Positions 580-7,984 of a stretch of 10,264 nt of DNA are shown here, in pieces. Location: assembly GCF_003334315.1 (NCBI RefSeq), contig NZ_QOWR01000089.1; one strand, written 5' to 3'. Numbering within the stretch: the first letter of the stretch is position 1; each line of letters opens with the position of its first letter. Made by a program: the position numbers and the translations under genes. The notes below the pieces were generated by a model that worked only from the letters and a program-made list of their open reading frames with translations, was not told the DNA's origin and did no database searches. The DNA comes from Escherichia coli. Lineage in GTDB: Bacteria > Pseudomonadota > Gammaproteobacteria > Enterobacterales > Enterobacteriaceae.

Positions 580-1998
580 TCAGACGCCGATATTTCTCAA
601 CTTCTCGCCTGCCATCAGTTTGCGTTCGATATGTTCCAGGGTGACATTTTTGGTTTCCGGAATGAGCCAGAAAGTGATGCCCACAAACGCAATGTTCAGC
701 GCAGTGTAGAGCCAGAACGTACCGGCAGCGCCAATGCTGTCGAGCAGCGTCAGGAAGGTCGCGCCGATAATCATATTCGACACCCAGTTCGTGGTGGTCG
801 AACAGGTAATACCGAAATCGCGGCATTTCAGCGGCTGAATTTCAGAGCACAGGATCCACACCACTGGCGCGGCGCTCATCGCATAACCGGCAATACACAT
901 CATCGTCATGCCAACAGAGAGCCATGACAGGCCACTGGAAGCCGTGCCGTTATCAAACTGCATCAGACAATAGCCCAGCACCAGAGTGCCTAACGCCATC
1001 ACGCTGAAACCAATTTTCAGAGCCGGTTTACGCCCTGCTTTATCTACCGTAAACACCGCAATAAAGGTGGCGAACATAAAGGTCAGCCCTACGACCAGAG
1101 TCGCAATCATCTGTTGTTCTGTCGTCGTAAAGCCCGCCATTTTGAAGATACGTGGCGCGTAGTACATGATGATGTTCATACCGGTAAACTGCTGCATCGC
1201 CTGCAACAACATACCGAGAAACACAGCACGACGGACGTTACGGTTGATCTTAAACAGTGCCCAACCGCCCTGTTTTAACTTCAGGCTTTCACGAATTTCG
1301 TTGAGTTCTTCTCGCGCTTTTTCCGACGTATCGCGCAGCATACGCAATACTTCTTCCGCCTCAATATGACGCCCCTTTTCCGCCAGCCAGCGCGGGCTAT
1401 TTGGCAGGAAGACCACCAGAATAATCAGCAGGACTGCTGGTAAAGCAAGAACCCCCAACATTGCGCGCCAGTTACCGCTATAACTGAACGCTGTATCGGA
1501 TAAAAACGCCAGCACGATGCCGAGTGTGACCATCAACTGGTACATACTGATCATCTTACCGCGAACGTTTTCACTTGCCATTTCAGAAAGATACAGAGGA
1601 GCGGTGTAAGAGGCGATCCCGACAGCAATGCCCAGCACCACACGAGCGGCGATTAACATCTCTACGCTGGTCGCAAAAGCGGACCCTATCGAGCCGAGCA
1701 CAAACAGGATGGCCCCCGCCATCAGGCTGTATTTACGCCCCAGGCGGAACGACAGCCAACCATTAAACAGCGCACCAATTGCTGCGCCGAGCATCATGCT
1801 ACTGACCACCCATTCCTGCAAACGGCTGGTCAGCACAAAGTGATCGGTAATGAACGGCAACGCTCCGGCGATTACGCCGATATCAAGACCAAATAACAAT
1901 CCTGCGACCGCAGCAGCTACCGAAACAAACATATTCATACGCCGCGTATCCCGCAAAGAACGTGGCGTTAAAGCAGATTCCGTATTGATAGTAACCAT
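580..1998 (-). CDS. araE: Arabinose:H+ symporter AraE (MFS sugar porter), 472 aa
   Basis: Translation from [31 protein letters not shown]… to …[18 protein letters not shown] matches E. coli AraE from memory. MFS sugar-porter motifs present ([20 protein letters not shown]). The ORF-track extension to 2127 lacks an RBS; the ATG at 1996-1998 follows gcaggaaaaa. Confidence 0.95.
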
Positions 1999-2056
1999 TT
2001 TTTCCTGCCAGCAGAGAGTAAGACATAGTGAAAAAATACGTGAACAATTCACACAG

Positions 2057-2096
2057 GTGTCAGGTCGGAAATAGCATAAATATGGATTAAATTGCT
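2057..2096 (-). promoter_or_regulatory. araE promoter: AraC I1-I2 direct-repeat half-sites with overlapping -35 (CTGACA)
   Basis: In araE sense: cAGCaatttaaTCCATA (complement of 2080-2096), 4-bp spacer, then tgctatttccgACCTGA (complement of 2059-2075). These match the araBAD I1 (TAGCATTTTTATCCATA) and I2 (TAGCGGATCCTACCTGA) half-site patterns at 21-bp periodicity. CTGACA overlaps the I2 end as in pBAD. No convincing -10 was identified. Confidence 0.6.
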
Positions 2097-2266
2097 GCGA
2101 CATGTCGTTATGTGATGGATATTCCAATTTTCAAATTAAGTTGAATTATTGAGATTATTATTAACCAACTAATTTTAAAGAAGATAAAATTCATAAAGTT
2201 CATTAATTGATAATTGATATGGATTATTTCATAACCATGATATGGATTATGATGATCTACAGGTAT

Positions 2267-2290
2267 AAAAAACCCTGCCATGCGGCAGGG
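2267..2290 (-). terminator. Rho-independent terminator downstream of kduD
   Basis: Stem ccctgcc / ggcaggg (2273-2279 and 2284-2290) followed on the minus strand by a run of 6 T (2267-2272), ~20 bp after the kduD stop. Confidence 0.75.
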
Positions 2291-2312
2291 TCATAAAAGT
2301 AAGAAGAATGAA

Positions 2313-3074
2313 TTAACGCGCCAGCCAACCGCCATCCACGGCAATGGTATAACCATTCACATAATCTGAAGCGCTGGAGGCAAGGAACACTACCGGCCCC
2401 ATCAGGTCACTCGGCAGTCCCCAACGGCCAGCTGGAATGCGGTCGAGAATTTCCGCGCTACGTTGTTCATCTGCCCGCAGTTGTTGAGTATTGTTGGTCG
2501 CCATGTAACCCGGAGCTATCGCATTAACATTAATGTTGTGTTTAGCCCATTCGTTCGCCATCAATCGCGTCACGCCCATCACACCGCTTTTTGATGCGGT
2601 ATAAGAAGGCACACGGATCCCGCCCTGGAAGGAGAGCATTGACGCGATATTGATAATCTTGCCGCCATTGCCTTGCGCGATAAAGTGTTTCGCCGCTGCC
2701 TGAGACATGAAGAATACGCTCTTGATATTCAGGTTCATGACATCGTCCCAGTCCTTTTCGCTGAACTCGAGAGCGTCTTCGCGGCGAATCAATCCGGCGT
2801 TATTCACCAGGATATCAATATGACCAAATTCCGCTACCGCGCGATCCAGCAGTGCTGGAATACCATCAATCTTTCGCAGATCGGCGGTCAGGCTTAAAAA
2901 ACGACGCCCCAGCGCTGTGACCTGCTTGATGGTTTCAGTCGGTTCAACGATGTTAATGCCAACAATGTCACAGCCCGCTTGCGCCAGCCCCAACGCCATC
3001 CCCTGGCCCAGTCCAGTATCACAACCAGTGACGACCGCAACTTTACCTTCGAGAGAAAATGCACTTAAAATCAT
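2313..3074 (-). CDS. kduD: 2-dehydro-3-deoxy-D-gluconate 5-dehydrogenase KduD (SDR family), 253 aa
   Basis: SDR motifs: glycine-rich cofactor motif VTGCDTGLGQG and catalytic YTASK (Y-x3-K). Full-length match to recalled KduD; sits 29 bp downstream of kduI, consistent with a kduI-kduD operon. Confidence 0.93.
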   Translation of the reverse strand: MILSAFSLEGKVAVVTGCDTGLGQGMALGLAQAGCDIVGINIVEPTETIKQVTALGRRFLSLTADLRKIDGIPALLDRAVAEFGHIDILVNNAGLIRREDALEFSEKDWDDVMNLNIKSVFFMSQAAAKHFIAQGNGGKIINIASMLSFQGGIRVPSYTASKSGVMGVTRLMANEWAKHNINVNAIAPGYMATNNTQQLRADEQRSAEILDRIPAGRWGLPSDLMGPVVFLASSASDYVNGYTIAVDGGWLAR

Positions 3075-6944: not shown

Positions 6945-7291
6945 CATAATGTTCATTCGTTATTATTCCGCACTATCACTTCCCTCATCATATCCTAGTA
7001 TTATCAGTTATTTAAACACACAAAGAGATCTGAACATCTTAAATAAGACTATTTAAGATGCATAACTTAGATTCGCAAGATATCTTCCGGTCATTCAAAA
7101 ACAATTTGCGATATAGATATTCTCATACCATGAGATAGTTATCTGAACCACCCTCAACCAGGTAAGATTAAATCAGTGAAACATAATCATATTTAATAAC
7201 GAGAAATGCATTTTAAAATGTCTTAATCAGAATTATAGCAAATACAGATTAATCGCAATTTTTCCCAGCAAAATTACAAAATCATGGTGTA

Positions 7292-7320
7292 TTGACATCA
7301 TCAATCACCAATGAAATTAT
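7292..7320 (+). promoter_or_regulatory. Candidate sigma70 promoter for yqeH
   Basis: Perfect -35 TTGACA (7292-7297), 17-bp spacer, -10-like AATTAT (7315-7320). Sits ~30 bp upstream of the yqeH RBS agggagg. Confidence 0.35.
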
Positions 7321-7351
7321 GCAATTATATACGGATAGGGAGGTTCTTAAC

Positions 7352-7984
7352 ATGGGGCTTTGTAGTCGTTATAAAAGTCTTACATGCAATAGTTGCTCAA
7401 TGCATTGCCAAATAATGCCAGAAGAGTCACCGCGTTTGCAGTACTGCGCAAACTCGTGTTTTTGTATGTGGCCCGAAGAAAGTTCATATTTTAATCGTGG
7501 TGTGGTAGAAGGTATCTTAACAAAAAACCACAATGCGAGATTAAGCGGATATATTTTTGTCGATTTTTCAGTAAGTTTTTTACGTCTATTCCTTGAAAAA
7601 TACTGGATTGACTATCTTGCAAGTACTGACATGGGGATTGTTTTAGTCAGCGACCGCAATATGCAATCGTTAGCTAATTACTGGCGAAAACACAACTCAG
7701 CAATATCTGCTGTCATATATAATGATGATGGTCTTGATGTTGCCAATGAAAAGATCAGACAACTATTTATTGGTCGTTATTTATCATTTACCAGAGGTAA
7801 CACATTAACTCAGATGGAATTCACCATAATGGGGTATATGGTTTCTGGTTATAATCCATATCAGATTGCTGAAGTTCTGGATATGGATATCCGTAGCATC
7901 TACGCGTACAAGCAACGAATCGAAAAGAGAATGGGTGGTAAAATAAACGAATTATTTATTCGTTCACATTCGGTCCAACATTGA
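7352..7984 (+). CDS. yqeH: LuxR/FixJ-type HTH transcriptional regulator YqeH with Cys-rich N-terminus, 210 aa
   Basis: C-terminal LuxR-type HTH (LTQMEFTIMGYMVSGYNPYQIAEVLDMDIRSIYAYKQRIEKRMGG). Start assigned to the ATG at 7352 (RBS agggagg 8 nt upstream), not the TTG at 7292 used by the ORF track. Confidence 0.85.
   Translation: MGLCSRYKSLTCNSCSMHCQIMPEESPRLQYCANSCFCMWPEESSYFNRGVVEGILTKNHNARLSGYIFVDFSVSFLRLFLEKYWIDYLASTDMGIVLVSDRNMQSLANYWRKHNSAISAVIYNDDGLDVANEKIRQLFIGRYLSFTRGNTLTQMEFTIMGYMVSGYNPYQIAEVLDMDIRSIYAYKQRIEKRMGGKINELFIRSHSVQH

Follow-up and report, generated by a model that had tools for sequence, protein, structure and literature searches.

DNA looping by AraC at araBAD is a textbook case of action at a distance. 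There, a single apo-AraC dimer bridges the half-sites araO2 and I1 (PMC11983282). AraC looping is described for PBAD only in the literature searched, and our full-text searches found no description of distal sites at araE; subscription papers or RegulonDB may mention them. A second kind of arrangement is found in araO1 (O1L-O1R) and araI (I1-I2), which are direct repeats whose two half-sites are read by one dimer. Furthermore, auxiliary AraC sites upstream of the activating site are said to have been found by Hendrickson et al. (1990, 1992) at araFGH (araFG2) and araJ; these reportedly are full two-half-site footprints established by experiment, with a minor or unclear role in activation. In the AraC family, MelR likewise represses the melR promoter from promoter-proximal and upstream sites (PMC2377442); the case involves another protein, another motif and four subunits, and it serves here as a mechanistic analogy only. 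The promoter of the arabinose transporter gene araE, PE, is treated as CRP plus I1-I2 in the order found in PBAD, with CRP upstream of the AraC operators (PMC2893085), and its quantitative properties were described as "not known so far" (PMC3935871).

The repeat pair upstream of araE in Escherichia coli

The DNA analysed here, called the window, is a stretch of 10,264 nucleotides from E. coli (contig NZ_QOWR01000089.1). Its minus strand carries araE, kduD, kduI and yqeF, and yqeG and more genes follow on the plus strand. The window ends (1-393 and 9872-10264) are 393-nt inverted repeats, 99% complementary, with matches to IS1 transposase DNA. Most of ygeA, the gene that comes after araE in strain 7/2, is replaced by the left copy, and the right copy is located around yqeJ/yqeK. 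The window appears to be either a contig with an IS1 copy at each end or a 9.5-kb segment flanked by IS1. The features of the araE region, including two distal sites named D1 and D2, are the following.

580..1998, minus strand: araE coding sequence (arabinose-proton symporter, 472 aa), the gene to which D1 and D2 are tied
2060..2076, minus strand: putative AraC half-site I2, TGCTATTTCCGACCTGA, 21 bp from I1 and overlapping the -35-like element CTGACA (2063..2058)
2081..2097, minus strand: AraC half-site I1, CAGCAATTTAATCCATA (A-box AGC, 2096..2094; B-box TCCATA, 2086..2081)
2111..2126, minus strand: CRP-type site, TGGAATATCCATCACA, with a B-box-like TCCATC in its spacer (2119..2114)
2215..2227, minus strand: distal site D2, the same 13-mer as D1; its B-box TCCATA (2223..2218) lies 137 bp upstream of that of I1
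2238..2250, minus strand: distal site D1, ATAATCCATATCA; its B-box TCCATA (2246..2241) lies 160 bp upstream of that of I1
2262..2292, minus strand: intrinsic terminator of kduD, a 9-pair stem GACCCTGCC/GGCAGGGTT at 2292..2271, then a T-run
2313..3074, minus strand: kduD coding sequence, the upstream neighbour of araE

A sequence-only reading of this DNA had described two identical 12-mers (2216-2227 and 2239-2250), 23 bp apart. Both are present, and each is one base longer than described: the exact direct 13-mer TGATATGGATTAT is found at 2215-2227 and 2238-2250, with a start-to-start distance of 23 bp. On the araE sense (minus) strand both copies read ATAATCCATATCA, D2 is 23 bp downstream of D1, and each contains TCCATA in the orientation of I1, as that reading had also stated for the sense strand; its estimate of about 130-160 bp upstream of I1 agrees with the measured 137 and 160 bp. 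It was also right about the AGC part of the AraC half-site, because the canonical A-box AGC, 7 bp upstream of TCCATA, is absent from both D1 and D2 in the window. The proximal I1 half-site contains the 10-mer ATATGGATTA for a third time (2080-2089), and this core, with at most one mismatch, has five matches in the window against 1.25 expected.

Both repeats lie in the spacer between the kduD terminator, which is the upstream edge of the araE regulatory region and whose hairpin is kept in most genera in an alignment of araE loci, and the araE promoter. The surrounding DNA is very AT-rich (GC 0.36 in 2101-2400), and the 331-bp kduD-araE intergenic stretch is found in 5424 of 5426 complete E. coli genomes. 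An Rfam search of the whole window gave no match to a structured RNA.

In such DNA the repeat might be a neutral local duplication or a chance event, with no function. When the 314-bp intergenic region was shuffled 2000 times with its dinucleotides preserved, only 0.15% of the shuffles gave an exact direct repeat of 13 bp or more within 60 bp, which argues against this explanation; a third exact copy of TGATATGGATTAT in an unrelated coding region, at 7851-7863, speaks for it. This third copy is on the minus strand, antisense in an ORF after yqeG (7292..7984), a "hypothetical protein" in the annotation of strain 7/2. Read on the plus strand, this point encodes YNPYQ; there is no AGC upstream of the copy, and its presence is probably a coincidence. 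Upstream of the same ORF, an imperfect 27-nt AT-rich palindrome is found in intergenic DNA (7194-7235).

Other roles for the repeats were considered and rejected. A sigma-70 scan of 1950-2350 gave three promoter-like sites against 2.3 expected, and the one overlapping the repeats (plus strand, 2214-2241; 9 of 12 matches) needs bases that are not those conserved. A second AraC-activated promoter downstream of D2 was discarded, as no genus shows a conserved -35 or -10 there, and so was a role in the formation of the kduD 3' end, given that D1 and D2 lie beyond the terminator and are kept even where kduD is not the neighbour.

Conservation of the distal sites in enteric genera

We compared 80 araE loci from GTDB species representatives, anchored on I1 (AGC-N7-TCCAT followed by CTGAC); counts cover the 69 loci in which I1 could be identified and the upstream DNA was long enough. 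The distal sites were collected by searching for TCCAT, so the first five bases of the B-box are invariant by construction. Conservation upstream of orthologous araE genes, named by the sequence-only reading as a check of its proposal, was clearly positive: 66 of the 69 loci carry D1, a TCCAT on the upstream side of the I1 TCCATA at a distance of 150-162 bp, and 59 carry D2 (TCCAT at 127-139 bp from I1), and the conservation of both spans 17 named genera. Four genera, Franconibacter, Cedecea, Buttiauxella and Mangrovibacter, have a lone distal half-site (D1, ATCCATAT) at 150-154 bp, and D1 is the more deeply conserved copy of the two. No distal site was found within 260 bp in the loci of Erwiniaceae, Pluralibacter and Rahnella. 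The D1-D2 spacing is 23 bp in 57 of the 59 site pairs and never 21 bp; in one Raoultella MAG (L024) it is 33 bp, about one extra helical turn.

The conserved core of both sites is only RTCCATAT. The information content of the flanks is near 0, the roughly 100 bp from D2 to the CRP site contain essentially no information in the alignment, and the sixth B-box base is A in 62 of 64 unique D1 orthologues and in 47 of 54 of those of D2. Identity of the two copies over the full 13-mer is found in Escherichia only, while the other genera share just the core; therefore the 12/13-mer identity is a lineage-specific accident, and selection keeps two octamers, their mutual spacing and their distance to I1. 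Confinement of the full identity to Escherichia would suit a neutral duplication; however, a core and a spacing conserved over 17-21 genera amid saturated flanks do not, and on these comparative data a repeat without function is effectively refuted and scarcely credible.

The distal sites travel with araE and not with kduD, since their distance to I1 is kept where the kduD stop is far off (Salmonella, K. indica and Superficieibacter) and also where kduD is not the neighbour (Phytobacter, Cedecea, Buttiauxella, Mangrovibacter and Franconibacter).

Distance to I1 and natural alleles

Two classes of D1-I1 distance exist, a long one of 160-162 bp in 46 loci and a short one of 150-155 bp in 21, and no locus falls between them; every value within 150-155 and 160-162 occurs, and this length is tightly constrained in an otherwise unconstrained spacer. 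The two modes are about 9-10 bp apart, close to one helical turn, and in one lineage D1 is shifted by +10 bp. However, the phasing is not clean: neither 160 nor 137 bp corresponds to integral turns at both 10.5 and 11.1 bp per turn. Helical phasing is not demonstrated, because the short class spans 6 bp, the classes largely follow clades and represent few independent events, and E. coli has alleles that differ by 7 bp. A handful of ancestral indels may be all that separates the long class from the short one.

In six divergent E. coli strains both TCCATA cores are invariant, and K-12 differs only at one flanking base of D2. The 7-bp polymorphism lies in a tandem TATCAAT-TATCAAT that adjoins D2 (window 2203-2216); the one-unit allele, a 7-bp deletion, places D1 and D2 at 153 and 130 bp from I1 instead of 160 and 137, and is carried by about 7-11% of complete E. 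coli genomes as estimated from identity bins (e.g. CUWW06, JS01 and O145 RM9872). In addition, E. coli TUM9757 has an IS1A between the CRP site and the distal repeats, at the equivalent of about window position 2171, which moves D1 and D2 about 0.8 kb from the araE promoter and makes this strain a natural separation mutant. The 7-bp deletion allele and the IS1 insertion are thus natural alleles at hand.

Similarity of the distal sites to araO2

The araC-araB intergenic region of E. coli, Klebsiella, Enterobacter, Cronobacter, Cedecea, Buttiauxella and Mangrovibacter was used as control, the six non-E. coli regions having been retrieved through AraC homologues. In all seven genera araO2 is AAACCAWTTGTCCATAT, in the orientation of I1, at 211-212 bp from I1 and with no AGC at the canonical position. 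Among unique sequences, a purine precedes the B-box (position -1) in 64/64 D1, 59/59 I1, 7/7 O2 and 52/54 D2 sites. The T that follows TCCATA (+7) is present in 59/64 D1, 56/59 I1 and 7/7 O2 sites and is weaker in D2 (27/54), and a T at -3 is shared by D1 (49/64), I1 (50/59) and O2 (7/7). The D1 of Klebsiella, CAATTGTCCATAT, is identical to the E. coli O2 core. At the place of the A-box, the D1 orthologues keep the A of the first position (51/64), followed by T and not G, and the D2 orthologues keep nothing.

A position weight matrix (PWM) built from only the flanks of the seven araO2 orthologues was compared with other TCCATA occurrences in the same loci as background. D1 scored well above the background flanks (Mann-Whitney p = 4e-15) and above an AT-rich background (p = 7e-6), and D2 more weakly so (p = 2e-6 and 0.024, respectively), all these p-values being inflated by the phylogenetic relatedness of the orthologues and indicative only. 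The flanks of D2 are A-rich and less similar to those of O2 than the flanks of D1.

Like D1, araO2 is an isolated half-site with the B-box GTCCATAT, no AGC A-box, the I1 orientation and an evolutionarily fixed upstream distance. The two systems differ in that araO2 is a single site, 211-212 bp from I1 and within the araC leader, whereas araE has two sites 23 bp apart, at 137 and 160 bp, in a non-transcribed spacer behind a terminator. Furthermore, araO2 has a conserved upstream AAACCA block, of which D1 shows only a faint echo (A at -10 in 51/64). These comparisons show D1 and D2 to be existing sites under strong purifying selection, with a constrained distance to the araE promoter and a likeness to O2 that extends beyond the hexamer.

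Proximal elements of the araE promoter

AGC-N7-TCCAT of I1 is invariant in 59 unique orthologues. The assignment of I2 at araE rests on analogy with I2 of araBAD, whose sequence was retrieved and confirmed; the CTGAC of the -35-like element is conserved in the orthologue alignment. Relative to K-12, the strain analysed here differs within window positions 2048-2072, where I2 reads GCTATTTCC instead of GCTGTTTCC and two further differences lie in the -35/-10 spacer; these polymorphisms could change araE inducibility from strain to strain.

The box in the CRP spacer, GTCCATC, is located exactly 33 bp upstream of the I1 B-box. Its TCC shows no variation among 42 unique orthologues, 34 of which also have the preceding G, and CRP alone does not account for this conservation. 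Of the 69 loci, 58 have a TCCAT inside the CRP site, 33 bp exactly from I1; the box occurs in precisely the lineages that also carry D2 and is missing where D1 is alone. Judging from its sequence, the box may be an AraC half-site overlapping CRP.

Proposed binding of AraC to the distal sites

The sequence-only reading had left open an O2-like AraC site or an unrelated operator. The AraC side of that proposal is favoured by conservation, orientation, flanks and the missing A-box; its support is partial, as AraC binding at these coordinates and the looping function stay predictions and the 12/13-mer identity is particular to one lineage. We consider it somewhat better than an even chance (about 0.55) that D1 and D2 serve AraC as auxiliary half-sites in the manner of araO2, bridged to I1 by the arabinose-free protein. 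In this model, without arabinose, one AraC subunit would occupy I1 and the other D1 or D2; the resulting loop of about 140-160 bp would enclose the CRP site, keep the dimer off I2 and hold basal araE transcription low. With arabinose, the dimer would shift to I1-I2 and, together with CRP, activate the araE promoter. Looping and repression are proven for araO2; at araE, we infer from sequence the binding of AraC to D1 and D2, the formation of the loop and the repression exerted by it.

The absence of the canonical A-box and the D1-D2 spacing of 23 bp, not the canonical 21 bp, count against the looping model. Moreover, the early genetics of Kolodrubetz and Schleif (1981) is said to have included no report of repression of araE by AraC. 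On the other hand, the legend of Fig. 4 of PMC3738151 indicates that ChIP-qPCR gave a signal for AraC at araE when the cells had no arabinose during growth; this signal fits looped apo-AraC, but I1 alone might suffice for it and its resolution is too low for D1 and D2.

The main rival explanation is that D1 and D2 together bind an AraC dimer of their own, as araO1 or araFG2 do, with no loop to I1, and act as a reservoir, a boundary element or a modulator of activation. Two B-boxes in direct repeat, with a spacing fixed at 23 bp in 57 of 59 pairs and a lone exception of 33 bp that adds about one helical turn, would suit such a dimer, and apo-AraC is able to fill two adjacent strong half-sites, as seen when the replacement of I2 by I1 causes constitutive expression (PMC11983282). 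However, canonical dimer sites are 21 bp apart, as are I1 and I2 here, and araO1 and araI combine this spacing with at least one AGC A-box, whereas D1-D2 has 23 bp and no A-box. Furthermore, both sites keep a constrained distance to I1, for which an autonomous site would have no need, and four genera carry D1 only. The last point weighs most in favour of bridging rather than autonomous binding, since one half-site is not enough to hold a dimer. We regard binding of a separate dimer as unlikely. The upstream sites of araFG2 and araJ resemble D1 and D2 in being extra AraC sites, at araE still candidates, at a promoter of the ara regulon; unlike at araFG2 and araJ, we know of no footprint at the distal araE sites.

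The RTCCATAT boxes could also be read by a nucleoid protein or by some regulator other than AraC, in which case their likeness to the AraC B-box would be coincidental. The missing AGC half and the AT-richness of the region (GC 0.36 in 2101-2400) would agree with this; however, the araE promoter is already under AraC control, nucleoid proteins do not impose invariance at the level of a hexamer, and to our knowledge no other enterobacterial regulator has a TCCATA direct-repeat motif. The orientation and the extended B-box flanks that the boxes have in common with I1 and O2, and the A-box missing as in araO2, favour AraC over an unrelated operator, and recognition by another protein appears quite improbable.

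A more elaborate version of the looping model, which we hold to be decidedly doubtful, concerns araE in the core Enterobacteriaceae, where D1, D2, the CRP-embedded TCCATC and I1 would all take part in a multi-contact repression complex of apo-AraC that masks the CRP site. If this were true, araE would integrate arabinose and cAMP through direct competition between AraC and CRP, an arrangement not described for araBAD.

Significance for arabinose regulation

The D1-D2 pair is a real, deeply conserved pair of cis-elements and is most probably of the araO2 kind, at a second ara promoter. The basal level of AraE determines how long arabinose induction is delayed and gives it its all-or-none character (PMC3935871), and it also governs the behaviour of pBAD expression systems. 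If the looping model is true, it would be a conserved repression loop at PE that determines this basal level, and looping would be extended to the promoter of a transporter and to a second ara promoter, with the model of AraC action not overturned.
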